This document shows, piece by piece, positions 182-14,263 of a stretch of DNA of 14,263 nt. The stretch comes from a virus. Below the pieces are notes generated by a model, which saw only the letters and a list, made by a program, of their open reading frames with translations, was not told the origin of the DNA and made no database searches. The stretch is taken from the UHGV virus genome UHGV-0258057, one strand, 5' to 3'. Positions within the stretch are counted from its first letter, which is position 1; every line of letters begins with the position of its first letter. A program made the position numbers and the translations under genes.

Positions 182-200
182 GTCCACATATTGACCACAT
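182..200. repeat. Two direct repeats G(T/A)CCACAT spaced 11 nt apart; possible integrase arm-type binding sites
   Basis: gtccacat (182-189) and gaccacat (193-200) lie between the att core and ogr; the reverse complement contains TGTGGAC/TGTGGTC. The function is inferred. Confidence 0.3.
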
Positions 201-204
201 CGAC

Positions 205-228
205 AAAAAAGCCCCTCGACTGAGGGGC
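205..228 (-). terminator. Rho-independent terminator downstream of ogr
   Basis: Perfect 7-bp GC-rich stem gcccctc/gaggggc with a 4-nt loop (211-228), followed on the minus strand by a UUUUUU run (plus-strand aaaaaa at 205-210), 14 nt after the ogr stop. Confidence 0.6.
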
Positions 229-241
229 TTCCTGTTTCTAA

Positions 242-460
242 TTACATCCACATAATTTGCTGCCCTGACGGCAACGGGTGCGGCCTTACGGCGTGGACTT
301 CTCCCGGCTTCACGATGTATCGCTGCACCGACTCATAAGTGATGAACGTGGCGCTGCAATTCACGTTCTGGCACTGGTGATAACGCTCTTTTGTCGTGTC
401 AGTGATATAGCGACTTGTACGCGCATGTGCGGCATGCTGGCATAAAGGACAATGAAACAT
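242..460 (-). CDS. ogr: Ogr late-gene transcriptional activator (zinc-finger), 72 aa
   Basis: Translation MFHCPLCQHAAHARTSRYITDTTKERYHQCQNVNCSATF... has the C-x2-C...C-x4-C zinc-finger pattern and the length of P2 Ogr. The ORF track opens 21 codons further upstream (to 523), but the MFHC start matches the Ogr family. Confidence 0.88.
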   Translation of the reverse strand: MFHCPLCQHAAHARTSRYITDTTKERYHQCQNVNCSATFITYESVQRYIVKPGEVHAVRPHPLPSGQQIMWM

Positions 461-541
461 CGCGAGCACCTCTTCCGGTTTTGTTGATGGTGCCATTTTA
501 GTTAATTTATCCTTATAAAACAAACAGATAAAACAAAAACA

Positions 542-1705
542 TCACTCATCACCTTCGGTTTCGTACTCCACATCAGAAAGCCTGACCTCAAGCTCCAAGG
601 ACGTCGTGAAGCCGCTATTATTCAGAAAATGTGTCACCTTAGTGATTGTCCAGTCCTGCTCGTCTATGACGCGCTTAAAGCCTGATACTTTGACCGGCGT
701 TTCCGTGTAAATATCTGCCCGACCGGTAGCCAGGCTGATGGAGAACTCCGCAACGCCCCGTTGCAGTTTATCCCACTTCGCCTGAGCGGCGCGCATGGCC
801 TGCGCTTTTGTGGCATATACCGTAGTCAGGGCAAAAACATTGTCAGCCTCACCAGCCATGTATTCACCTTCGCGCGCTTCCGGTACTTTTGGCGCTTTCT
901 TCTGCGTGACTGGTTTCGCTTTCGGGTGCTCCAGTGCGCGCAGGTGTTTCTCTTTCTTTTTGCGTTTCAGTTTTACCTTCTGCTTTTGCGGCTTCGGGTC
1001 TTTGGTGTGTAACCACTTTGCCGTTACGCCGGTATAGGCTCCACGATCAGCAATCGCAAAATGATGGCGGTCGCCGTCGCTGCGGGTTATGGTGACCTGC
1101 GGGATTTTTTTACCGCTGGCCGTCACCCCCTGCCCCGCTTTGAGAAACAACAGTTTTCCCATTTTTACCGACACCTCACCGCCGTTGCGTTCAGCAAGAC
1201 GGGTCAGGAATTTCGCATCGGACTCCTGCGACTGGTCGATGTGCGGGATTTTAATTCCGGCCAGTGACGGAGCGACACTGGCTTTCAGCCTGTTACGGGA
1301 GGCTATCTCCTCAACAATCGCACCGAGCGTGGTGTCATGCCAGGAGCCTTCACGGCGGGAATTGAGCGTCCCGCGAAAATCTGCACTCCGGGCGCGGATG
1401 GTAACCACATCCGGCGCGCCCCGGTGTTCAACCTCATCAACGGTAAATTTCCCTTTGCATACCAGGGCAAAACCTTTCCAGCCGATATACACCGTCAGGA
1501 CAGCGCCACGAACCGGCAGCCCGACCTGCCCGTCGGCATCGTTCAGTTCAATATCAAGCTGGTCAGCCTCAAAGCCCCGGTTATCCGTCAGGGTCATGCT
1601 CATCAGACGGTCGCTGATATTGCCGGTAATATCCCTGCTGTCGAGCATCAGCATGTAATCCGGCGTCAGCGTACTGCCTGCATCAAATGTCAGCGCATCC
1701 GGCAT
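542..1705 (-). CDS. D: Tail protein D (late control gene D), 387 aa
   Basis: A 387-aa ORF directly upstream of ogr in the operon; size and position match P2 gpD, and it has a lysine-rich central linker (KQKVKLKRKKKEK). Confidence 0.88.
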   Translation of the reverse strand: MPDALTFDAGSTLTPDYMLMLDSRDITGNISDRLMSMTLTDNRGFEADQLDIELNDADGQVGLPVRGAVLTVYIGWKGFALVCKGKFTVDEVEHRGAPDVVTIRARSADFRGTLNSRREGSWHDTTLGAIVEEIASRNRLKASVAPSLAGIKIPHIDQSQESDAKFLTRLAERNGGEVSVKMGKLLFLKAGQGVTASGKKIPQVTITRSDGDRHHFAIADRGAYTGVTAKWLHTKDPKPQKQKVKLKRKKKEKHLRALEHPKAKPVTQKKAPKVPEAREGEYMAGEADNVFALTTVYATKAQAMRAAQAKWDKLQRGVAEFSISLATGRADIYTETPVKVSGFKRVIDEQDWTITKVTHFLNNSGFTTSLELEVRLSDVEYETEGDE

Positions 1706-2184
1706 TATCCCGCCCCCGTCATACCTGTGAATCTGGTCGCCATACTGCCGGCCTTACCGATGAGCGATTCCGCCTGTTTACCGATATCGCCATAAAGCGC
1801 GGCCAGTGATTCATCAACGCGGGTGAGCGACAGCGTAAAATCAATTTTCCGGGGTGTGCCGTCTGCAAAGAAAATACTCCCTGTTTCACTCACCTTACTG
1901 ATGACATACATGCCGTAAATCATGCCGGTGCCATCCAGCAACGGCCACGCCCGACCTTCCTCTGCCATCAGCCTGAGCGTGGTCATCGTCAGCTTGCCGC
2001 CGGTCAGTTCGGGATAAAGCACACCGGCCAGCGTGATGTTTTCCTCACCCACACCGAGAAACTGAAAGGCATCCCGTTTGCCGATACGGGAATTTGACGG
2101 CCAGCGATAATCTGATTCACGCTGCATGGTCTGGTGTGGCAGCGTCTGGCGCATAAAAACAAACATACCTAACGCGAGCATCAT
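1705..2184 (-). CDS. U: Tail protein U, 159 aa
   Basis: A 159-aa ORF between T and D whose stop overlaps the D start by 1 nt; matches P2 gpU in size and position. Confidence 0.85.
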   Translation of the reverse strand: MMLALGMFVFMRQTLPHQTMQRESDYRWPSNSRIGKRDAFQFLGVGEENITLAGVLYPELTGGKLTMTTLRLMAEEGRAWPLLDGTGMIYGMYVISKVSETGSIFFADGTPRKIDFTLSLTRVDESLAALYGDIGKQAESLIGKAGSMATRFTGMTGAG

Positions 2185-2198
2185 TTTTCGTCACCTCC

Positions 2199-4646
2199 TT
2201 AACCGTCATGCATCATGCTGGCACGGGCGCGCGCACGTTTATCCCGCTCGTATTTTTCGAGTGCATCCTGTAACTGGCGGTCGAGCTGTGTCCCCGGCGC
2301 AGTACCACCCGTCAGGCTGATGTGATATTCGTTTTTACTCTGGTCCACATAAGAGCGGCCAGCCGGTGCCGTAACCGGCTGATAAGCCTGATAGCCTGCA
2401 TAAGAGCTGGTCGCCGGAATATAACCACCGCTGCCATACGTGGTGGCTTGAGTTCTGGCGGCGGTCTGGTCAAGTGTGTCTGACTCTTTGTTGATAACAC
2501 CGAGTTTTTCCAGTACCCAGTCAATTCCGCTGCGCAGTTTGTTGAACGCATTAAGCGGCAGCATCAGCGCGTCAGCCAGTGCCTGCCCGAACATGACGCC
2601 AGTATCACGGCAACGGTTCAGGGTGTCCTGGGTGGCTTTGACCGGGGCAATCAGGTTTTTAAACCACTGCCACGCGGCCTGTAACTTTTCGCCCAGCCAG
2701 TCAAACACCGGCTTAAGTGGCGTGAACAGTTCCCCCACCGGCGCAAATGCCGCTTTCAGCCCTTCCATCACACCGCCAAAGAATGCGCTGACAGGCTCCC
2801 AGTATTTACGGATAAGCAACGCCCCGGCGACAATGGTGGCCACCACGGCCACAACCGGCCAGCTAATCGCCCCGATGGCGGTCATAACAGCACTGCCAAC
2901 CGTCGTGAAGATTGCCCCCATTGCGCCTGCTGCCGCGATAATGGCATTGATGCCGGTGATAACCGGCCAGGCTACAAGACCAATGGCACCGATGATGCCA
3001 GTAAGCGCCAGCGCGCCACCGACAATGAGGCCGATGGTTGACGCCAGTGATTTGTTTTTCTGGATCCAGCCGTCGAGTTTTAACACATACTTTGTGGCCG
3101 TCTGAGTGAGCTTACGCAGTGCGCCTTCGTGCTGGTCAAACAGGTCAGTCCCCACCGCCTCATAAGCGGACTGAAACTCCTTAAAGTCACCGCCGAGGTT
3201 GTCCTGCATGATATTTACCAGTTCTGCGGTCTTTCCGTCTGAGGCTTTAAACGCAGCGGTCAGTTTGTCCAGCTTTCCGGTTGACGCGGCAGTCATCAGC
3301 ACAGCGGCGGCTGAGCTGGCCTCCTCCCCGAAAATGGTTTTCATGTATTCGGCCTGCTGGGCAGTACCGAGCCGGTTTTTCTCAAAACTGGCCTGCATTT
3401 CTTTCAGAATGGTAAATACTGGTCGGGTGTTTCCCTTGCTGTCTGAGGTTTTCACACCAAGCTCTTTCAGTGCATCCCACGCTTTTCCCGTCGGTGCCTG
3501 CAGGCGGCTTAACACGGCACGGCTTCCCGTCCCCGCCATTGAGCCTGTGATTTTTGCATCATGCAGCGCCCCGACCATTGCGGCGGTTTCTTCAATGCTG
3601 ACACCGGCATTTTTTGCCACAGGTGCGGCATAGGTCAGCGCATCGCTCATGCCGTCAAAATCGGCGGCGGTTTTGTTCATCGTCATGGAGAGAACATCCC
3701 CGATATGAGCGACCTTATCGTTTGAAAGCTGAAAGGCGGATTTCATCCCCATCAGCAGGGCGGCGTTTTCTTCCATCGTGCGGCGGTTCGCCAGCGCCAT
3801 ATTCAGCGTGACCGGCGTTGCCGCCTGAATGGCATCAACATCCCCACCCGCTTTCGCGATGATTATCTGTGCACCGGCCGCATCATCCGCCGAGGCGGCG
3901 GTATTGTCGCCGAGCTGGCGCGCCTGTTTGCGTAGTGCGGTCATTTCGGCGGAGTCTTTTGCCACTCCGAGCACGGCCTGCAATTCTGAGTTTTTCTGCG
4001 CAAACTCATAACCGGGCATCAGCAACTTAACTCCGGCCATCGTTCCCGCCGCCGCAATCCCCACACCGGCAGCGCCCACTGAGGCCATATTTCCGGCCAG
4101 TTCCTTTCCGGCCTGATAACGCTGTTTTACTGCGTTAAGTTTTGCCTGTTGTGCACTGACACGCGCCAGTGCGTCACGCTGACGGTTAAGCTGTGCGGTG
4201 GTTTCACTGATACGGTTTTTCAGTCCCTGCTCATCATGTGCAAGATTGCGGGTATTAATTCCCACAGCGGCCAGTTCCCGCTGCTGGCGTTTAACGGAAT
4301 CCGTCAGGCGGTTATATTTCGCCTGTAAGTCCTCCGCCGCACGCTTTGCGGATTCCAGCACTTTCGCCTGAGCACGTGTCGGACGTTCGGTATTTTTAAA
4401 CTGTGTGGCAAGGGCTTCGGCCTCCTGCCGAGCCTTTTCAAGTGCATGACCAGTCACGGCGAGCTGTGCACTGGTCTTGCGGAATCCCTCAATACGGGAT
4501 GCCTGACCGTTCAGCTCGCGCAGTGATTTTTGTGTTTCCCGGATATCCCCCGACAGCGATTTGCTCGCTGTGCGGATGGATTTAAACGGGCGGGATGCCT
4601 GGTCAACAGCCCTGAGCAATACCTGTAATTTTACATTGTCACTCAT
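2199..4646 (-). CDS. T: Tail tape measure protein T, 815 aa
   Basis: An 815-aa ORF with coiled-coil-like Ala/Gln-rich N-terminal region and Gly/Ala-rich hydrophobic central segments typical of tape measure proteins; same length as P2 gpT. Confidence 0.9.
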   Translation of the reverse strand: MSDNVKLQVLLRAVDQASRPFKSIRTASKSLSGDIRETQKSLRELNGQASRIEGFRKTSAQLAVTGHALEKARQEAEALATQFKNTERPTRAQAKVLESAKRAAEDLQAKYNRLTDSVKRQQRELAAVGINTRNLAHDEQGLKNRISETTAQLNRQRDALARVSAQQAKLNAVKQRYQAGKELAGNMASVGAAGVGIAAAGTMAGVKLLMPGYEFAQKNSELQAVLGVAKDSAEMTALRKQARQLGDNTAASADDAAGAQIIIAKAGGDVDAIQAATPVTLNMALANRRTMEENAALLMGMKSAFQLSNDKVAHIGDVLSMTMNKTAADFDGMSDALTYAAPVAKNAGVSIEETAAMVGALHDAKITGSMAGTGSRAVLSRLQAPTGKAWDALKELGVKTSDSKGNTRPVFTILKEMQASFEKNRLGTAQQAEYMKTIFGEEASSAAAVLMTAASTGKLDKLTAAFKASDGKTAELVNIMQDNLGGDFKEFQSAYEAVGTDLFDQHEGALRKLTQTATKYVLKLDGWIQKNKSLASTIGLIVGGALALTGIIGAIGLVAWPVITGINAIIAAAGAMGAIFTTVGSAVMTAIGAISWPVVAVVATIVAGALLIRKYWEPVSAFFGGVMEGLKAAFAPVGELFTPLKPVFDWLGEKLQAAWQWFKNLIAPVKATQDTLNRCRDTGVMFGQALADALMLPLNAFNKLRSGIDWVLEKLGVINKESDTLDQTAARTQATTYGSGGYIPATSSYAGYQAYQPVTAPAGRSYVDQSKNEYHISLTGGTAPGTQLDRQLQDALEKYERDKRARARASMMHDG

Positions 4647-5066
4647 TCGTGTTTCCGCTTCGCCGGAGCGCCTTTTCGCGCCATGTGATGAGTTCGGTCA
4701 GGCTCATGGGATACAGTTCTGATGGCGGCCAGTGAAATATCACTGCCACATCCGCCATCAGGTCATCGACCGACAGATTTTTCGGAAACGTCACTGAACC
4801 GAGTTCGGCGACAAAAAACCGACCACCTTACCGGCCAGCGCCACAAGGTCAGGCAGTTCCAGCGCGGCGACTTCCTGCTCGGTCAGCATCGGTGCCGTCA
4901 TGCGCGGCAGCACCTTAATCAGTGCATCGACTTCGGAGTTCGCGACCGCTGCCAGACTGACACCGCGCAGCGTCCCGGCATTGGGTTTCATCAGCGTGAC
5001 CTGTTCGATGACCTGCTCACCACGCTTGACCGGATTGTCCAGGGTAATCACATTTTCTTTGTTCAT
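4639..5066 (-). CDS. E+E': Tail assembly chaperone E+E', produced by -1 programmed ribosomal frameshift (142 aa)
   Basis: The minus-strand slippery heptamer GGTTTTTTG (plus 4811-4820 acaaaaaacc) lies in codons 83-85 of E. The -1 frame is open from there to a TGA at 4641-4639, which overlaps the T start codon, and gives 84+58 = 142 aa, the same as P2 E+E'. Confidence 0.75.
4791..5066 (-). CDS. E: Tail assembly chaperone E, 91 aa
   Basis: A 91-aa ORF between FII and T ending ...GKVVGFLSPNSVQ; size and position match P2 gpE. Confidence 0.85.
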   Translation of the reverse strand: MNKENVITLDNPVKRGEQVIEQVTLMKPNAGTLRGVSLAAVANSEVDALIKVLPRMTAPMLTEQEVAALELPDLVALAGKVVGFLSPNSVQ

Positions 5067-5122
5067 GGTTTTCTCACTTCTGAATCAGGGTTAACCGGTC
5101 AGCCTGGCTGACCGGATGAAAA

Positions 5123-5641
5123 TCACAGGCCGATATTGCGGCGGTGTTGCTCCAGCCGGTCGACGCCGTTCACCTTCTCAATCATGTTGATGGTGTCGAT
5201 TTCGACCAGCTCCTTACCGTCCATCGTCAGCCGGAAATAGGTGCAGACCACGGAGATTTTCGACTCAGTGTCTTCTCCCTGTTTACCCTCGCCGGTGTCG
5301 ATTTCTTTCTGACGTCCACGCATGACCACTTCGACGGCCACCGTTTCGCCGGTATCGTCACGCTGGTAAGAGCCTGCAAAACGAATCGGCACAGCATCCA
5401 CACCGGTTGCGGCGTAAAGCTCCCAGATAACCGAATCCGGGAAGCCCCCGAGCGACCACTCCATTGACAGCGCATCGTCATCAAGACCGAGGTCTACCGG
5501 TGCGCTGCCGTTCATCCCCGCACCGCGATAGTTTTCGAGCTTACGGGTCAGTTTTGGCAGCGTGACGGACTTTGCAACGCCCTGATAGCTGTAGCCGTTC
5601 AGAAAGACGTTCATTAACTTGAGTTTGCGCGGCATTGCCAT
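5123..5641 (-). CDS. FII: Tail tube protein FII, 172 aa
   Basis: A 172-aa ORF immediately downstream of the sheath gene; size and order match P2 gpFII. Confidence 0.88.
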   Translation of the reverse strand: MAMPRKLKLMNVFLNGYSYQGVAKSVTLPKLTRKLENYRGAGMNGSAPVDLGLDDDALSMEWSLGGFPDSVIWELYAATGVDAVPIRFAGSYQRDDTGETVAVEVVMRGRQKEIDTGEGKQGEDTESKISVVCTYFRLTMDGKELVEIDTINMIEKVNGVDRLEQHRRNIGL

Positions 5642-5653
5642 CGGTCAGGCTCC

Positions 5654-6844
5654 TTAATTGCTGTTAACCGAGGTGACCAGATTTGCCAGATATTTATCGG
5701 TAATACGCTGGCGCAGGGTCAGGTTTTCAAGAGGAGGCACCGGGGTATAGTCGTAGTCGATATACAGTTTTCCGGCCTTAAGGGTTTCCGCATCGTTGGA
5801 TTCTTCGCTGAACCAGCAGGTCGCATCCACGATATAGCCGTTTGTTTTCAGCTCACGGAATTTGGCATTGATGCCGTCAACGATGTCGCGAATCAGCGTT
5901 GCGGTGATGGGCTTGTCCACCGCCCACATGTGCGCCTCAGCCATCGTGTCGGCCAGCACCTGCGCGGTGCGGGTGTAGTTTTCAAAGAGGAACAGCGGAT
6001 CATCAGAGCAGGTACGGTTACCCCAGAAGCGGAAACCGTCGCGGCGAATCAGCGTTGTGACGCCTGACTCGTTAAGCAGGTCAGCATCGGTGCCGGACTC
6101 CTGCAAATCCCAGAATACAGATGCGCTGATGCCGGTAACACCGTTCACCCCGACATTGGACAGCGTTTTATGCCAGCCCTGCTCTTGGTCGATTTTAGCG
6201 CGCAGACCCAGCGCACGGGCGGTGGCATACGCGGTGGCGGTGGTGCTGCTGACCGTATCCCATGCGAGGAAATCCGGCCAGATGACCATCAGCTCACGCT
6301 GGCTGAAATTCTGGCGGTAGGCTTTCACCTCGGAAATGGTTTTGCAGCCCCATGCGCTGATATACCCGAAAGCGCGCAGCTTCTGACAGACTGATGCCAG
6401 TGCAACAGCAACCTCTTTGGTGTCCAGTCCCGGCACGCCGAGAATACGCGGTTTAACACCGGTTACCGACTCCGCCGCCAGCAGGGCTTTCAGTCCGGTG
6501 TACTGACCGTTTTCGTCGGTGGTGCCGATGATATTGGAAACGGTCTGCGCGAGTTTCGTTTCCTCGTCTTCGCCGGTGCCGTCTTCCACACGCACGACAA
6601 CGGTGACCGGTTTTGACTGGTCGGCGATAGCCTGCAACGATGCCGCCAGCGTGCCTTTTTTACCGGCCTTTGCAATCGCGCTCTGCACATTGGTAATCAG
6701 CACCGGTTTATTGAGGGGGAAGATTTCCGCATCCGCATCGCTGGCCGTGCAGACCATGCCGACAATGGCCGTGGATACAGTGGAAATGACACGGGTGCCG
6801 TCGTTAATCTCCAGCACCTGCACGCCGTGATGATAGTCACTCAT
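5654..6844 (-). CDS. FI: Contractile tail sheath protein FI, 396 aa
   Basis: A 396-aa ORF, first gene of the FI-FII-E-T-U-D operon; size and position match P2 gpFI. Confidence 0.9.
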   Translation of the reverse strand: MSDYHHGVQVLEINDGTRVISTVSTAIVGMVCTASDADAEIFPLNKPVLITNVQSAIAKAGKKGTLAASLQAIADQSKPVTVVVRVEDGTGEDEETKLAQTVSNIIGTTDENGQYTGLKALLAAESVTGVKPRILGVPGLDTKEVAVALASVCQKLRAFGYISAWGCKTISEVKAYRQNFSQRELMVIWPDFLAWDTVSSTTATAYATARALGLRAKIDQEQGWHKTLSNVGVNGVTGISASVFWDLQESGTDADLLNESGVTTLIRRDGFRFWGNRTCSDDPLFLFENYTRTAQVLADTMAEAHMWAVDKPITATLIRDIVDGINAKFRELKTNGYIVDATCWFSEESNDAETLKAGKLYIDYDYTPVPPLENLTLRQRITDKYLANLVTSVNSN

Positions 6845-6907
6845 CCGTTTAACTCCGTGGTTAATGGGTGCAACTATTTTCTGTTGGGCAGTGCATGAGA
6901 CGCTATT

Positions 6908-6922
6908 TGACCTGACTGGTCA
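6908..6922 (-). promoter_or_regulatory. Candidate dyad element of the Ogr-dependent late promoter upstream of FI
   Basis: The 15-nt palindrome TGACCtgactGGTCA is centred about 71 nt upstream of the FI start codon, in the position where P2 late promoters carry a dyad-symmetry activator site. I could not find an exact TGT-N12-ACA match. Confidence 0.25.
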
Positions 6923-6938
6923 GTGGATGAAACAACAG

Positions 6939-6971
6939 ATAAAGAAAAGGCGGGCAATCAGATTGCCTGCC
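6939..6971 (-). terminator. Rho-independent terminator closing the cargo operon upstream of the FI promoter
   Basis: A 10-bp stem ggcgggcaat/attgcctgcc (one G-U wobble) with a 3-nt loop at 6949-6971, followed on the minus strand by UUUUCUUUAUCU (plus 6939-6948). It lies about 150 nt downstream of the SIR2-like gene stop. Confidence 0.6.
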
Positions 6972-7123
6972 TTGATTTGTGCTCACTCATTTTCCGACTG
7001 ACAGTTTACATAGCCAAAACGCTATCAAATCTGACAGCCTGCTTTGAGCGAGGAACGGACTAAATGCTCATCTCAGCGGTCAAAGGATATTTTTCTTTGA
7101 CCGTTCTCTTTATAGAGAAAAGA

Positions 7124-8032
7124 TTATCTGTTAGTTTTATTCTGAATATCTTTGATTACATCGAGGTAATACTCTTTTTCCTTCCCTTTGAACACTAACC
7201 CGAAATTATGATTAATTATAACCCCAACACTTTTCAAAAGATCGATTTTTGGTTTGGAAGCAGCGTCATTATAATAATAACCAGGGATGTAATATGTCAC
7301 CTCATATTGCAAGCTTATTTTCTTTGCAATTCTAGTCCTTTCTCTAAATGTAAGTAACCACCAAAGATCAATTTCAACAAAATCCAAATTCAAGCCTAAG
7401 ATATATACATCCTTAGTAAAAAAATCATCGATCCAGCTATTACCAATATCATTTGCTTGCAACCGCTTTGTAAGCGGCTCGTTGAACGATTTATTGGAAT
7501 ACTGACTTCCGGTAGTTGTATACCCCCGCATGCTTTGCAAATAACCACTGTAATGCTCATAGCCAAGAATTATTGAGCTTGGGTTATTCACTGCTCCATG
7601 TATATGCCATATGTTTTTGTTTTTCACCTGATAATGCCTGAAAATATTGTATTTACTTTCTTTTATTACACCTTCATTTTTTAAATCATCAGGCTTGATG
7701 CTGTCGTCTAAACAATATTCAAAAGCTAAATCATAGTTTGTTGTTAAAATATTATTGCATTCTAATCCAATTATTCTTTGATGGATTTCATTTGGCTTTA
7801 TTGTGTTTATCTTTGATGCGATGGAATCTTTTATTTTATTTTCTGAAAATCCATTCGCTTGCTTATTTGAAATATTAAAATAAATCTCTTCATAGGCTAG
7901 TGGAAATGGTTTTTCATGCGTGTCAATTTTTATCCCATATGTTGCCCCTAGGTTATTTAAAACATCAAGCCAAGAATTTCCATTTGTAATATTATTTATG
8001 CCATTTCCAATAAGCAGTGAATAATCGCGCAT
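7124..8032 (-). CDS. Stand-alone SIR2-like (SIR2_2-type, predicted NAD+-hydrolase) protein, 302 aa; candidate defence effector
   Basis: Motifs in sirtuin-fold order: N-terminal glycine-rich LLIGNGINN, then ILTTNYDLAFE (TTNYD signature with the putative catalytic Asn), then WHIHGAVNNPSSIILGYEHY (HG motif with the following strand), then YILGLNLDFVEIDL. Strong RBS AGGGA 5 nt upstream; about 30% GC against about 55% in the flanking phage genes. Confidence 0.6.
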   Translation of the reverse strand: MRDYSLLIGNGINNITNGNSWLDVLNNLGATYGIKIDTHEKPFPLAYEEIYFNISNKQANGFSENKIKDSIASKINTIKPNEIHQRIIGLECNNILTTNYDLAFEYCLDDSIKPDDLKNEGVIKESKYNIFRHYQVKNKNIWHIHGAVNNPSSIILGYEHYSGYLQSMRGYTTTGSQYSNKSFNEPLTKRLQANDIGNSWIDDFFTKDVYILGLNLDFVEIDLWWLLTFRERTRIAKKISLQYEVTYYIPGYYYNDAASKPKIDLLKSVGVIINHNFGLVFKGKEKEYYLDVIKDIQNKTNR

Positions 8033-8262
8033 TTCTATCCCTTATGTTAGATACATTTTTTACACTATACTACTGATATTTATTCTAATACCAGTCATTG
8101 GCATGTTCGACACCGATAAGTTTGATCTTGCCTAGCAACTTATGTTTTCGAATATGCCCCCCCCATGAAAGTCTTAGACAACTATACCTATTAATATCCT
8201 ACAGAGTGCTCTTCGTAGTCAGAAAATGAGAACGAGATAACATCAGTTCATTGGTTTACTCC

Positions 8263-8499
8263 CTACGCAGTTTGTGAGTTAGCACCGTCCGCTTCTGGCA
8301 CGTAGGGGACCAACCAGCTGGTCCTCAGGTCCGATATGAGCGAGAAGCTAAAATTCGCAGTTGTTCCCAAAGTCGATGGAGGAATTTTTAACATTACAGT
8401 GTATTTATCAACGGGAAGCAGGTCACTCTCTATGGTTCTCGCATTATTTGTTAACAAAATAACATATTCTTTTGCTTCATCGATAGTATTGAATATCAT
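8263..8499 (-). CDS. Small hypothetical protein, 78 aa, middle gene of the cargo operon
   Basis: ORF with RBS GTGGGA 5 nt upstream of the ATG. The first ~58 codons are AT-rich like the neighbouring genes; the last ~20 codons read through a GC-rich hairpin element, so the true C-terminus is uncertain. Confidence 0.4.
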   Translation of the reverse strand: MIFNTIDEAKEYVILLTNNARTIESDLLPVDKYTVMLKIPPSTLGTTANFSFSLISDLRTSWLVPYVPEADGANSQTA

Positions 8500-8587
8500 A
8501 AGTTCCCACTTAACATCGATATCTGCGGTAACTGATTAACACAAAGAAATTCATCCAATAGCAGAGAATAACTTTGAGTTTTAGATT

Positions 8588-9430
8588 TTAAAAAACCTTC
8601 AGCCATAATGTTTCGAGCCTTGTGCCAATCACGCCTTTTCCAATGTTATCCAGCCCTCGAACCATTGCGTATAAGCCACCTAATATTTGAATCCCTTCCT
8701 TTACACCTAAAGACGAATAGTCAAAAGTTGGAAAGAGGACGTAATAAGACATAATTACCCCAATACAACACTCGAAAACTCCATAGGAAAGACGGAAATT
8801 TTCTCTGTACCAAAATAGTATGAGTCCTAAAACGGGTAAACCCATCATTGTCCCCCAAACTGTAATGGTAGATACCAGTACTTCCATATTGGAATAGACG
8901 ATGTTTGCGACTAGAGAAGCAAGCCCGCCGAGCACAAAACTGGCTTTTAGGTAACGCTTTTGAGATGAAACAGCTTTTTCTGCTTTCTCTTCTATTTCTT
9001 TATTTAGAAAATCGCCTTTGCTTTCATTTATAAACTCAATGCCAGTCATAGATGTAATATTCCGACTAGCAAGAAAATAAGACAAGGCACGATCATTGGT
9101 CACGACGCAAGGAACTTCTTCTCCTTGCCGTTCTGCGTAAGAAATAGCTATTCGAGCAATATCAAAGTCTGCCCCAGTCAAACGCTGAGCATTTCTATCG
9201 GATTGGAAGATGTCGTTTTTTATTTTTTCAGGCGCTTCAACTATGAGCACACCAGCGGGAATTGACGAGGCCACTAAATCAGTAATATCTGACCATTTGT
9301 TGCTTTTCCCTCTATATGAAAGCTCATGCATCACAGCTCTTGGGATAACTAGCTTCCGATTTCCAGCTCTAGACAATATCTCCGGATGCTGCAATAAAAC
9401 ATTAGTATCTATTATGTATCTACTTGGCAT
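8588..9430 (-). CDS. PIN-domain nuclease fused to a C-terminal ~3-TM membrane domain, 280 aa; candidate defence component
   Basis: The N-terminus YIIDTNVLL...KLVIPRAVMHELS...TNDRAL follows the PIN pattern (first-strand Asp, then Glu, then the C-terminal TND motif), resembling the YlaK/PhoH-like PIN. The C-terminal ~110 aa has three hydrophobic stretches (FVLGGLASLVANIVY..VLVSTITVWGTMMGLPVLGLILFWY; GVFECCIGVIMSYYVLFPTF; IQILGGLYAMVRGL). RBS AGGGA upstream. Confidence 0.55.
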   Translation of the reverse strand: MPSRYIIDTNVLLQHPEILSRAGNRKLVIPRAVMHELSYRGKSNKWSDITDLVASSIPAGVLIVEAPEKIKNDIFQSDRNAQRLTGADFDIARIAISYAERQGEEVPCVVTNDRALSYFLASRNITSMTGIEFINESKGDFLNKEIEEKAEKAVSSQKRYLKASFVLGGLASLVANIVYSNMEVLVSTITVWGTMMGLPVLGLILFWYRENFRLSYGVFECCIGVIMSYYVLFPTFDYSSLGVKEGIQILGGLYAMVRGLDNIGKGVIGTRLETLWLKVF

Positions 9431-9587
9431 AAGCTATCCCTGATACCTTAATTTATCAAATAAAACGGTATGTAAACATATAAAACATAACTTCACAACT
9501 CACTTATCACTGCAAGTTTCCCAACCAGGCAAGCCATGTGCTTAGATATCTGACCTAACGTTTCTAAATTGATGAATGTCCGCTATT

Positions 9588-9628
9588 GGCACAGAGCGGA
9601 CTGTCAGATTAGGCTTTACTCTGTGCCA
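9588..9628. repeat. 10-bp perfect inverted repeat with 21-nt loop, between the G stop and the cargo operon start
   Basis: tggcacagag (9588-9597) pairs with ctctgtgcca (9619-9628). There is no U-run on either side, so it is not a canonical intrinsic terminator; it may be a protein-binding site or the boundary of the cargo insertion. Confidence 0.4.
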
Positions 9629-9661
9629 TAGATATGTAAGCTCCCACCAGAGCTCATACAC

Positions 9662-10189
9662 TTATTGCGGCATTTCCGGCCATTCAGGATTTGCAGTATC
9701 CACACGACTGACAAGAACGCTGTAGCGTTCCCATGCCTCCAGTCGACTGCGCTCCTCATCTGTTGCCATATTCAGCCTGACAGCGCGCTCCAGCGGCAAA
9801 ATCACGGATTCGGCTTCGGAAAGCAAAGTTGCCTTTTGTGATTCTGCCAGTTGCTGCTGTTCGTCTGCCGTATAAATCCGCTTAATCACTGCACCATCCT
9901 TAAACATCCATTTACCTGAGTCATCAGCACGCCGGTTGGCAGTAATATCAGGAACCTCAACGACGCTAAAACCTTCAGGATTAAGCGTTGAAGCATCTCT
10001 GGTGATGGCGACAATAATATTATTTTCATCATAAACAATCTTTATTGTCTCTGGCTGAAAATTACTTACTTCCTCATACCAGTTTTTTCCGTCTTCGGAC
10101 CATAACCAGATAACATCAAAATTCTTTGTTAGCTGATATTGCTCTTTTGTTTTTGGATTACCTGACTTAATGTTCTTTAAATGCTGCAT
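9662..10189 (-). CDS. G: Tail fibre assembly protein G (Tfa chaperone), 175 aa
   Basis: A 175-aa ORF immediately downstream of tail fibre gene H; size and position match P2 gpG. Confidence 0.8.
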
Positions 10190-10192
10190 AAC

Positions 10193-12238
10193 TTATACCT
10201 GCGCAACGTTATACCATGTGCCATTGATGTATTTTTGTATTGGTCTGAATACTGCCGGATCATCGCCATCAACTTCACCGACAATACCAAGCCCCGTAAT
10301 TGCATGGCCTGATTTTTCATACATCACGCCTTTCTGCATGGTCTGCACAACACGTGTGCCAAGTCTGATATCTCTCACATAGCGGGAATCAAAGTTACCG
10401 TAATCCGAGGGATTAACACGCCCCGTAATATTTATGGTCTTATTACTTTGAATGCTTCCGGAGACAAAGCGCATAACATGGACGTTATTAGCATAAACAT
10501 CTAGATTACCATCGCCATTTTGTTTAAATCCGGTGTCGCTATCACCAAGAACAATAGAGTTCCCACCCAACGCGTTATTCGTGCCAAGTGCCAGCCCGCC
10601 ATCAATCCTGGCACCATTACCAACAGACACAACTCCTGTTCTTAAGTTGATACCGAATGGCCTTAATGGCCCGATATCCCCATTTTCACCCTCATTTTCT
10701 CGTGTAGGGATGATATACAGGTTTTCTTCAGAACGGCGAAAAATAGCACCAAAAGATGAATTAAATATCCTCAGTGCATTGACTGTAGATATTTTTACTT
10801 CACTGCTGAAAAGGGCTTTAACAAGAACATACAGAGCATCCCATTTAAGATGCATCAGGTCTTTTGTTGTGGTGCTCTGGCGACTTCTCCATTTGAAATA
10901 TTCATTGCCGTTGTCGCCTGTTTCAAACCACATATATGAATCAGTATCGCTGTCGGCATCATTTTTAAATCCAATCTTTGCCCAGTCAGTATTTCGAATC
11001 CAGGCAAGGATTGAGTCGTTTTCAAATGTAAGCCCACCGGACAAGGTATCGCCATTCTTTTGCACCGCGTTCCTGGCTCGGTTTTCCGTTTCCTGTAAAC
11101 CGAGATATTCGATAACGGCGGCAACGGTCGATTTCGCAAGAATATCTCGCCCGACTTTTGTCAGGATTGCCAGGCTGGCAACATCATTCCCCGTAAAATA
11201 CGGAAACCTGTCTGCCGCAGTAACAAGCCCCGCCAGCGCCGTCAAAGTGGCATCTTTCGGTTGCTTACCCGCAAGCGCATTAGTCATGGTGATAGCAAAA
11301 TTCGGGTCATTGCCCAGCGCCGCTGCCAGCTCGTTCAGCGTATTCAGTGCGTCAGGCGACGAGTCTACAAGGGCGGCAATCGCGGCCATAACGAAAGCCG
11401 TGTTTGCGATCTGAGTATTATTCGTTCCCTGTCGCGCAGTTGGCGTCGTTGGCGTTCCGGTCAGTGCAGGGCTGTTTAATGGCGCTTTTTGGTTCGTTTC
11501 ATCCATTACCGTCTTAACAGCTTTTGGTGTTGCGGCGAGCGTTTCAGACATGCTGTTGGTCGCACTACTTAGCTGGACAAGACCTTTTCGCGCTGTGGTA
11601 GCGTCCTGTGCGGTATATTTCCCGTTAGCAAGGTCATATGCGGCCTTAACCGCTTTCGGCGTTGCGGCCAGTGTTTCAGATATGCTGTTGGTCGCACTGC
11701 TTAACTGAGTAAAACCTTTTGCGGTCAGCGAGGCGTCAGGGTGACGTCGTGACTGTTCATGTTCTGCAATTTTGTCATCAACGTAATCCTGCGTTGCCAT
11801 CACCGTTGTGGTGTCAATGGTCAGCGCCACTGAGGCCACACTGCTGACGATGATGACCATGCGGCAGGTCTGCGAACGCCCTGAGCCTTCGGCAAGGGCA
11901 GGCTTATAACTTTCGGCCATGTTCGCCACGGCAATTAACGTTCCCGCATCATCGTACAGGCCAAGCTCACGCATCCAGAAACCGCCCACCTCCGGCGGAA
12001 TAACCAGCTCTGCGATAATATAATTACTGTTTCGTTTGTCCTGGCTGATTTTGTTCAGCGCATGTCGCCAGACTTCGTGGATAAGCCCGGTCTGTCCGGC
12101 ATCCGGGACAGGCAATTTACCACCGCCATCCCCGACGGCCATCGTGGTAATGTTGACCTTCCGCCCTCCCGGCGCGGTTGCCGCTGCCAGCTTTGCTGCA
12201 CCGGCAGTGGTGATAACGGTTCTGAATTTTGTGCTCAT
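10193..12238 (-). CDS. H: Tail fibre protein H, 681 aa
   Basis: Large ORF between I and G; contains a duplicated QLSSATNS(I/M)SETLAATPKAVK motif characteristic of P2 H/Stf-type fibres and a compositionally distinct C-terminal domain. Confidence 0.85.
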   Translation of the reverse strand: MSTKFRTVITTAGAAKLAAATAPGGRKVNITTMAVGDGGGKLPVPDAGQTGLIHEVWRHALNKISQDKRNSNYIIAELVIPPEVGGFWMRELGLYDDAGTLIAVANMAESYKPALAEGSGRSQTCRMVIIVSSVASVALTIDTTTVMATQDYVDDKIAEHEQSRRHPDASLTAKGFTQLSSATNSISETLAATPKAVKAAYDLANGKYTAQDATTARKGLVQLSSATNSMSETLAATPKAVKTVMDETNQKAPLNSPALTGTPTTPTARQGTNNTQIANTAFVMAAIAALVDSSPDALNTLNELAAALGNDPNFAITMTNALAGKQPKDATLTALAGLVTAADRFPYFTGNDVASLAILTKVGRDILAKSTVAAVIEYLGLQETENRARNAVQKNGDTLSGGLTFENDSILAWIRNTDWAKIGFKNDADSDTDSYMWFETGDNGNEYFKWRSRQSTTTKDLMHLKWDALYVLVKALFSSEVKISTVNALRIFNSSFGAIFRRSEENLYIIPTRENEGENGDIGPLRPFGINLRTGVVSVGNGARIDGGLALGTNNALGGNSIVLGDSDTGFKQNGDGNLDVYANNVHVMRFVSGSIQSNKTINITGRVNPSDYGNFDSRYVRDIRLGTRVVQTMQKGVMYEKSGHAITGLGIVGEVDGDDPAVFRPIQKYINGTWYNVAQV

Positions 12239-12248
12239 TATTCCTCAC

Positions 12249-12779
12249 TTATCCGGGGTAAACCGTAATTACATCGCCGTCGTAAGCCACACAACCGGCG
12301 AACAGGTAGCCGGGAATGTCCCGGGTAATGTTCAGGCCAATAAGGTGGCGACTTGCAGGTTTGGCATCAGCAATCAGCCGTTCCATTTCCTGATACATTG
12401 CCTCTGTGATGCCGCTTTCCAGTACACCAATATCAAGCCTGAAGGTGCCTGGCGGGTCACTGTTTTCCCACCACTCCGTCACGTTGATGAGATAGCCGAG
12501 CGGCTCCACCACACGCCGGATTGCGCCGATAGTGCCTTTATGACAGTGGATGAAATAGGCATCGCGGATAACGGCGCGTTTTGTCGCTTCCGGCCACTTT
12601 TCATCCCACCTGTCGACCGAAAACGCCCACGCCAGCCACGGCAGCAGATTTGCCGGGCAGGTGTCCGGGTTCCACAGCTCACGAATACTGACCGGCGTTT
12701 TTTCAATTTCCGCACAGGCTTTTGCGGCGGCGACTTCAAGCGGTGATGAGCCGGTCGACAGCAGTCGCGAATCACTCAT
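12249..12779 (-). CDS. I: Baseplate assembly protein I, 176 aa
   Basis: A 176-aa ORF between J and H whose start overlaps the J stop by 8 nt; size and position match P2 gpI. Confidence 0.85.
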   Translation of the reverse strand: MSDSRLLSTGSSPLEVAAAKACAEIEKTPVSIRELWNPDTCPANLLPWLAWAFSVDRWDEKWPEATKRAVIRDAYFIHCHKGTIGAIRRVVEPLGYLINVTEWWENSDPPGTFRLDIGVLESGITEAMYQEMERLIADAKPASRHLIGLNITRDIPGYLFAGCVAYDGDVITVYPG

Positions 12780-13680
12780 CCGAGCCTCCGGTCACGACGC
12801 TGTATTCGGTGCAGAAAGACGCCTGCGTACTGTTGAGCACAATGTCGGCCAGTGGTGCGGCCAGCTCGACACGCTGCACGCCTTCCACATGCAACGCGGC
12901 ATAAATGGCAGACAGACGGATGTCGCGCCCCAGCCGGTGCTGTGCCGTGATGTACGCTTCCAGCTTTTTCACGGCAGCAGCGCGGATGGGTTCGCTTTCG
13001 GGACCAGGGTAAAGGTAAAGCGTGGCGTTTATCTGGTATTCAACGATGGCGGCAGACTGCACGGTCACGCGGTCGGCCACCGGCCTGACGTCCTCGCCAT
13101 TAAGGGCGTTACGCACCACGGCCAGCAGGTCTTCGGATGCGACGCCGTTATTTTCACGTGACAGCACAGAGATAGTGACGCAGGCCGGAGACGGACTGGT
13201 GACAGAGATATCCGCGACACGCCCGTCGGCACTGCGGCCATGATACTGATAGGCTCCCACCGACCCGGCGACGCTTAAGCCCTCAAATGCCTGCTGAATA
13301 CGCAGACGATAATCGGTGTCAGATTCCATCACTGCCGGTGTCGGCGGAATGGTCGAATCATCTGCCGGGGTGATAATCAGGCGCGTGGTGTTGTAATTGG
13401 CACCAATTACATCAAGGTCATTACCGGCGGCACAAGCCAGCATCACCGCCCGTGCGGCCTCATTCACACGCTGACGCCAGATAAGCTCACGATAAGCATT
13501 TTCCTCCAGCAGTTTGACGAGAGGCTCAGATTCCAGCGTCAGGGTACGGGCGACCGCCTCCTGCTGGTCTTCCGGGTAAAGGGAAATCAGTGTCGCCTTG
13601 CGTTCGGCAAGAATGGTTTCAAAGTCCAGCTCCTCGACCACATCCGGTGCGGGTAGCTGATTCAGGTCGATAATCGGCAT
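12772..13680 (-). CDS. J: Baseplate wedge protein J, 302 aa
   Basis: A 302-aa ORF between W and I; size and position match P2 gpJ. Confidence 0.85.
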   Translation of the reverse strand: MPIIDLNQLPAPDVVEELDFETILAERKATLISLYPEDQQEAVARTLTLESEPLVKLLEENAYRELIWRQRVNEAARAVMLACAAGNDLDVIGANYNTTRLIITPADDSTIPPTPAVMESDTDYRLRIQQAFEGLSVAGSVGAYQYHGRSADGRVADISVTSPSPACVTISVLSRENNGVASEDLLAVVRNALNGEDVRPVADRVTVQSAAIVEYQINATLYLYPGPESEPIRAAAVKKLEAYITAQHRLGRDIRLSAIYAALHVEGVQRVELAAPLADIVLNSTQASFCTEYSVVTGGSDE

Positions 13681-13684
13681 GGTT

Positions 13685-14032
13685 TCAACTCACAGGAATG
13701 GTTAACGAAAGTGGCTGGCCGGTGTCGTTGTGCTGACCGGTTAACGTGACCGTCATTCGCCCGTCAAAACTGCGCTCAGTGGTGACGGATGACAGGGTGA
13801 CGCGGGGTTCCCATTTCAGTACCGCCATGTAACAGGCGACCTTAATCTGCAACTCAAGCGCCAGGGTCTGCGGCTGGTCAATCATTGACGCCAGCAACGA
13901 ACCGTAATCACGACGCATCACCCGTGAGCCGACCGGCGTGCGCAGGATATCGCCGATACTCTGGCTGATATGCTCAAGGTCAGTGACAGTCAGGCCATCA
14001 CAGCGATTCATTCCGAGATAACGTGCTGTCAT
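13685..14032 (-). CDS. W: Baseplate protein W (gp25/lysozyme-like wedge subunit), 115 aa
   Basis: A 115-aa ORF immediately upstream of J; size and position match P2 gpW. Confidence 0.85.
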   Translation of the reverse strand: MTARYLGMNRCDGLTVTDLEHISQSIGDILRTPVGSRVMRRDYGSLLASMIDQPQTLALELQIKVACYMAVLKWEPRVTLSSVTTERSFDGRMTVTLTGQHNDTGQPLSLTIPVS

Positions 14033-14263
14033 AGAGGACTCCCGGTTGTGCCGCCGCTGTCGCCGGGGTGTTTATGGGTATGCAGTATCCGCCGTGGCTG
14101 TCTGGAATATGACGTCAGCGCCACCGACATCACCAGCTCGTTTATGGCTATCCGCAAGACCATGACCAGCAGCGGACGCAGTGCCACCTATGAGGCCAGC
14201 CGCAGCGAGGAAGCCAGCCACGCCGACCTCGCCTGGGCGACCATGCACGCCCTGTTAAATGAG
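14033..14263 (+). CDS. Partial plus-strand ORF running off the window edge; possibly the 3' portion of a terminase large-subunit (gpP-like) gene left by a deletion
   Basis: The minus strand has stop codons in all three frames across 14072-14257, so gene V cannot be here. One plus frame is open from W to the edge and reads ...SGRSATYEASRSEEASHADLAWATMHALLNE, which resembles the conserved H-D-D-L-A motif near the C-terminus of terminase nuclease domains. Orientation fits P2, where P is transcribed opposite to the tail operons. Confidence 0.3.

Follow-up and report, generated by a model that had tools for sequence, protein, structure and literature searches.

At the right end of this virus genome (UHGV-0258057, 14,263 nt, the whole of which we analysed and call the window), a piece of the terminase gene P lies beside the late gene W. 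Two questions arise from this locus: how the two genes were brought together, and whether the complete tail genes and defence cargo to their left are held in place by selection. A preliminary description had suggested that they might be, in an element domesticated and kept either for its cargo or for use as a structure derived from the tail. The evidence presented here argues, with high probability, for a plainer reading: a P2-type prophage at locI, seen here as its left arm, that has lost about 8.55 kb in one internal deletion and is defective for particles and for tails.

Integration site and retained genes

By its sequence, a P2-type (Peduovirus) prophage sits at locI of an Escherichia chromosome, and the window covers its left arm. 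Positions 1-600 share 98% identity with the region downstream of trhP in E. coli TB06052, and P2-like prophages at other chromosomal sites match the window from position 154 onward only. The string AATCTCCCTTACACGGGCTTATTTTTT at 114-140, which we take to be identical with the P2 core, stands beside ogr and the trhP-side host flank. Our reference for comparison was the intact Peduovirus HQ103 (NC_070908), with its annotation. The retained features are as follows.

1-153: chromosomal DNA of the host towards trhP/yegQ, at the P2 attachment site locI, assigned by homology
114-140: P2-type att core, an exact string at the boundary of host and phage homology
242-460, minus strand: ogr, late-gene activator, 72 aa, intact (PF04606 Ogr_Delta, E=2e-21)
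542-6844, minus strand: P_F operon D, U, T, E/E', FII and FI, all full-length open reading frames with the lengths found in HQ103
7124-9430, minus strand: cargo between FI and G, made up of a SIR2-like protein, a 78-aa ORF and a PIN-domain protein
7124-8032, minus strand: SIR2-like protein (PF13289 SIR2_2; weak ThsA/LmuA-type SIR2 matches in PADLOC)
8263-8499, minus strand: 78-aa ORF with no family match
8588-9430, minus strand: PIN-domain protein (PF13638 PIN_4)
9662-14032, minus strand: G, H, I, J and W, full-length open reading frames (W matches PF04965)

The genes follow the P2-like (Peduovirus) order ogr-D-U-T-E-FII-FI-(cargo)-G-H-I-J-W, and the retained late genes are all full length (12 of 12). 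Ogr is 100% identical to its HQ103 counterpart; the P_F operon proteins are 92-100% identical, and this range covers the retained proteins generally, with the exception of H. The tail-fibre gene H (10193-12238) is the most divergent late gene, with 81% protein identity to HQ103 and a length of 681 vs 669 aa, the one departure from HQ103 lengths; its exact protein sequence is on record in one contig only. The completeness of the W-to-D module, of ogr and of the SIR2/PIN cargo, as first described, is thus borne out in each part.

The junction between V and P

Window positions 13000-14087 align with HQ103 11100-10013, which comprises J, W and the final 59 nt of V. Positions 14086-14263 are a 100% match to a stretch of gene P (HQ103 1457-1280). 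The V-side and P-side alignments overlap by 2 nt, a TA at 14086-14087, and this part of the window reads as follows (the slash marks the end of the shared TA).

14029-14087, minus strand: V', the final 18 codons and stop of the spike gene V, aligned with HQ103 10071-10013
14086-14087: deletion junction, TA common to both parents (V ...GCAGTA/CC; P ...ACGTTA/TCC)
14087-14263, plus strand: P', codons 514-572 of the terminase large subunit, 100% identical to HQ103 1457-1280

The translation of V', ILHTHKHPGDSGGTTGSPL followed by the stop, agrees with the C-terminus of HQ103 gpV. That of P' matches residues 514-572 of gpP, a gene of 590 codons; the frame ends at the window edge with ...EEASHADLAWATMHALLNE, runs on past it, and codons 573-590 are expected beyond, with Q, cos, a second cargo hotspot, A, B, cox, C, int and attL to follow. 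Close relatives of this plus-strand ORF carry PF17289 Terminase_6C; the ORF is the end of the large terminase subunit at its C-terminal nuclease domain, which bears out the resemblance to a terminase nuclease-domain motif noted at first. An intact prophage has V, R, S, X, lysis genes, L, M, N, O and P between W and Q; here W is followed by 55 nt and then by P codon 514. Relative to HQ103, nucleotides 1458-10012 are missing (8,555 bp), an interval annotated in that phage with P codons 1-513, O, N, M, L, X, holin, lysozyme, lysA, lysB, lysC, R, S and V codons 1-192. Going by P2, the interval also contains the late promoters P_P, P_O and P_V; in P2, P_V sits upstream of V, and hence within the missing segment.

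V' reads leftward on the minus strand, P' reads rightward on the plus strand, and both are the 3' parts of their genes. Because of this arrangement, the junction is explained by a simple deletion from the order W-V-S-R...O / P-Q, and the same orientation rules out an inversion. An adjacent deletion mediated by an IS or transposon was also rejected, V abutting P directly with no mobile element or element end at the junction. The preliminary description held that V was missing upstream of W and that a deletion ran from inside P to the W start. Codons 1-192 of V are indeed gone and the deletion does begin inside P; the last 18 codons and stop persist, however, and the deletion ends inside V, 55 nt short of the W start codon. 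All seven minus-strand stops adduced for the loss of V are present (lower coordinates 14072, 14115, 14130, 14142, 14148, 14188 and 14255). Because about as many would turn up by chance in the three frames of a 231-nt stretch (roughly 3 per frame), they prove nothing on their own, and homology is the decisive evidence.

An intact counterpart of the window exists. The ENA metagenome contig k141_12816 (ERZ27308756; L127 22046-8152) has a complete late region, with P, O, N, M, L, X, lysis genes, R, S, V and W through to ogr, and is 100.000% identical to window positions 193-14087 over 13,895 nt, without a mismatch or a gap right up to the junction. The P_F operon is included in this identity; the contig also carries the SIR2 cargo and the H protein of the window residue for residue. 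With 0 substitutions over 13,895 nt between window and intact phage, the deletion has therefore gained none since the two separated. The event is apparently very recent, and the window and k141_12816 look like a parent and product pair of the deletion. There is no further decay in the window prophage, while several other remnants carry two or three deletions.

The exact junction is absent from 5,426 complete E. coli genomes, from the GTDB species representatives and from the JGI metagenomes, and its 52-aa junction ORF was not found in the gene index; the V10013/P1457 junction (HQ103 coordinates) is known from one sequence only. The deletion allele is new, and its kind, the defective P2-like prophage, is well known. 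Comparable junctions of V' or of another gene with P' occur in the complete E. coli chromosomes AST46, 1916D18, ZH177, 700481, TB06052, FT130 and W13-16. The window belongs to the same family as the cryptic or defective E. coli P2-like prophages (K-12 ogrK-yegZ at locI, AST46, 1916D18, ZH177, 700481 and FT130), and the FT130, TB06052 and K-12 remnants occupy the same attachment site. Like these elements, it has an internal deletion from the late region into P of the kind that leaves Q in place; unlike them, it has the V10013/P1457 allele, which is in no other record searched.

A junction that is unique among the collections searched, that has an identical intact phage on record over 13.9 kb, and beyond which the window extends for 177 nt only could be a chimera produced by assembly or sequencing from an intact prophage, with V and the head and lysis genes really present. 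We regard this as unlikely. The 2-nt overlap is too short to mislead a k-mer or overlap assembler, and the junction falls, to the nucleotide, on a site at which real deletions are found in four assemblies that are independent of one another and include two closed chromosomes; a random join would reach the same P site with a probability of about 1 in 1,000. Because four other prophages share the exact P-side break, among them those beside pflB and fieF at two different chromosomal sites, we read the junction as an in vivo event and not as an assembly error. It is also conceivable, with a probability close to negligible, that the 8.55 kb segment was moved and not lost, having been excised and reinserted or having become part of a larger rearrangement elsewhere. 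The available sequence stops at the window end, with Q, cos and the right arm outside it, and this leaves room for such a history, but the orientation of the junction is of the simple-deletion type, and in every analogous remnant inspected the segment is plainly lost and Q comes straight after P'. A simple deletion is the reading that we carry forward.

Recurrent break sites in gene P

The P-side endpoint of this deletion recurs in other remnants, and it is one of three positions in P that do so. Below, a site is named by the HQ103 coordinate of the T of its TA, and ^ marks the inferred break.

H3, site 1457 (GACGTTA^TCCGCC), five different partners: V10013 (this window), V9797 (E. coli 1916D18), a divergent V allele (E. 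coli 700481), T20032 (isolate prophage beside pflB) and FI16658 (isolate prophage beside fieF)
H2, site 1504 (CGCTA^CACG), at least eight partners: V9796, V9519, two tail-fibre-segment sites, P2093, Q498, a further Q site and site 2119
H1, site 2119 (GCCTA^CCCG), at least nine partners: V10006, D21912, D21672, J11016, N4800, S9167, M5590, P2377 and site 1504
Sites 1400 and 1394 in P: one junction each

Of the 42 TA dinucleotides in P, three account for most of the junctions; over these three hot spots there are at least 20 distinct partner sites. The partners mostly share TA, or slightly more, with the P site (0-4 nt of microhomology), and the break lies just before the TA in some junctions and just after it in others. 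Two junctions at H1 (those of L135a and L137) have no microhomology at all. Going by such junctions, the P side and not the pairing seems to set the place of the break, and the partner then seems to be picked by minimal pairing. The junctions are a sample, steered in part by the choice of protein queries. Among closed genomes, P is found in 1,668 records, and in 47 of these the best copy has <80% coverage; in an evenly spaced listing of P matches from closed genomes, two rows begin well inside P, at TA sites 2119 and 1400. In IMG/VR, 120 of 120 loci are intact at the P-side sequence, in a collection that is enriched for whole phages and says little on remnants.

Clustering is seen on the partner side too. 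The V-side endpoint 9796/9797 has been joined to two different P sites, in ZH177 and in 1916D18, and the V-side endpoints 10006, 10013 and 10019 belong to AST46, to this window and to the gut-metagenome remnant L130, respectively; the interval 10006-10019 of V in HQ103 corresponds to about 14081-14094 on the window side. In J, 11016-11023 has been used twice, with different P sites (P0052 and P0065). Remnants with two or three separate deletions occur among L130, L132, L135, L136 and L139, and examples of such multiple deletions are ogr-D'/V'/P'-Q within 3.2 kb and D'/M'/P' in FT130. Deletions from P to Q likewise begin at site 1504. From the sequences compared, this pattern suggests stepwise erosion that reuses the same sites. 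In L131-L133, where an invertible fibre segment goes with a Cin/Pin-type invertase, P1504 is joined to the end of a tail-fibre-assembly gene inside the segment, and the junction yields an in-frame TAP-N::P' ORF (P0006).

The deletion in the window joins V nucleotide 10013 to P nucleotide 1457 at the 2-nt TA microhomology, and the overlap points to RecA-independent illegitimate recombination, by end joining or template switching, as the way in which this could have happened. Short-homology illegitimate recombination in E. coli is similar in its 2 nt of junction homology and in the lack of a mobile element. It differs in one respect: the plain short-homology model does not predict reuse of the P side, because here the P-side endpoint recurs to the nucleotide in independent events, some of them with zero microhomology.

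Several processes that might choose such sites were tried and rejected. Against all TA sites in P, the similarity of H2 and H3 to REP/RAYT-like sites is at background, as are the scores for cos-like or att-core-like secondary sites. Among possible single-stranded hairpins, H1 lies between two small stems, and H2 and H3 are unremarkable. Cleavage by an HUH enzyme of the IS608 type (TTAC^) would place the break after TAC and not before or after TA, and IS621-type recombination has a CT core, not the TA shared here. Pseudo-sites of a Din-family invertase, with the consensus AAACC-NN-GGTTT, were sought by eye; the junction flanks displayed have none, and the window encodes no invertase. For a one-sided deletion by CRISPR-Cas3, there is an AAG 6 nt upstream of H3, yet no PAM near H2, and nucleotide precision is unexpected of Cas3. 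For RecBCD, no Chi is correctly placed. Site-specific recombination as a class (Int, Din invertase, IS110/bridge or HUH) fits poorly with a crossover that shifts around the TA, with partners that share no bases and with an att-core similarity near background.

We offer only tentatively the idea that P has at least three nucleotide-precise fragile TA sites (2119 GCC-TA-CCCG, 1504 CGC-TA-CACG and 1457 CGT-TA-TCCG), and that a specific breakage or recombination activity, and not random decay, might inactivate these prophages. Applied to the window, a site-preferring break or recombination at H1-H3 would have started the deletion, and the free end would then have been joined with 0-4 nt of microhomology. 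Such an origin is possible but, to our minds, doubtful, and it would refine the mechanism of the simple deletion without contradicting it. The number of partners at each of the three sites, the large share of junctions that falls on just these three of the 42 TA dinucleotides in P and the H1 junctions that lack microhomology speak for it, and so do the two inside-P starts of the evenly spaced listing, both at TA and one of them at H1. Against it stand the background-level REP, cos and att-core similarities and hairpin strengths, a break before or after TA that is unlike the action of a precise recombinase or HUH nuclease, and a sampling that was not exhaustive. We found no description of hot spots in P in the literature.

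Consequences for the element and its cargo

By its gene content, the element would be defective. The deletion removes the divergent P_P/P_O promoter region, 513 P codons, the head, lysis and tail-completion genes, P_V and 192 V codons, and the prophage should form no heads, lyse no cells and finish no tails. We expect no virions from this element by itself, in agreement with the preliminary description; SOS does not induce prophages of the P2 type. Expression of G, H, I, J and W would probably be lost along with the P_V promoter, and we saw no sigma-70-like site in 13600-14263 that could serve as a replacement promoter for W-G. Three parts may still be able to act, namely ogr, the Ogr-dependent FI-to-D operon and the SIR2/PIN cargo, and the residual DNA could donate tail-fibre and cargo alleles by recombination.

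The same retained genes might be taken to speak for a remnant under selection for its defence cargo, or for a tailocin-like structure: the W-D tail genes, ogr and the SIR2/PIN cargo are intact, and defective P2 elements with conserved defence genes have been described (PMC13586616). We consider both very improbable. With 0 of 13,895 nt differing from an intact phage and a junction private to the window, intactness needs no selection; because the window is nucleotide-identical to that phage over the 13.9 kb left of the junction, the intact W-to-D genes reflect youth and not selection. Complete tail genes next to a deletion do not speak for domestication where an intact phage of identical sequence is known, and the proposal of a remnant kept for its cargo was to that extent an over-reading. 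A tail-derived structure, for its part, needs V, X, R, S, the lysis cassette and P_V, all of which fall in the deleted interval. R-type pyocins, the model tailocins, retain homologues of V, X and the lysis genes. The window resembles R-type tailocins derived from P2 tails, such as the R-pyocins, in its sheath, tube, tape measure, baseplate wedge and fibre homologues. It is nevertheless not a member of that class: 18 codons of V are left, the deletion has taken X, R, S and the lysis cassette, and the W-G promoter is gone, with nothing promoter-like seen upstream of W in its place. No tail particle would be expected from what remains. The window is better read as a recently deleted prophage in which the cargo has simply not yet had time to decay.

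The SIR2-like, 78-aa and PIN_4 genes of the cargo may form a candidate undescribed two- or three-gene defence system; the PIN-domain protein has no match in PADLOC, and the same SIR2/PIN cargo is annotated in E. coli ZH177 and also lies on L127, the contig of the intact phage. Conserved defence genes are already known from other defective P2 elements, in which the cargo is intact while the core decays, with no obvious pattern in core-gene loss (NAR 2026, PMC13586616). The window is like these elements in having a defective P2 backbone with intact hotspot cargo, here SIR2-like and PIN genes, and differs in that conservation of its cargo is explained by the age of the deletion and not by stabilising selection. 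Other remnants have a second cargo hotspot past Q, which holds reverse-transcriptase genes in FT130 (L139 5309-6856) and W13-16 (L140 5478-6178), and OLD-like, HATPase or methylase genes in others; here too the core decays around an intact cargo, in line with PMC13586616.

Taken alone, the window is ordinary, one more defective P2-like prophage that changes little. If the fragile sites in P are real, it would be a zero-age example of their use, standing beside its intact parent and free of later mutations. It would then become testable how bacteria or phages disable P2-type prophages yet keep their defence cargo.
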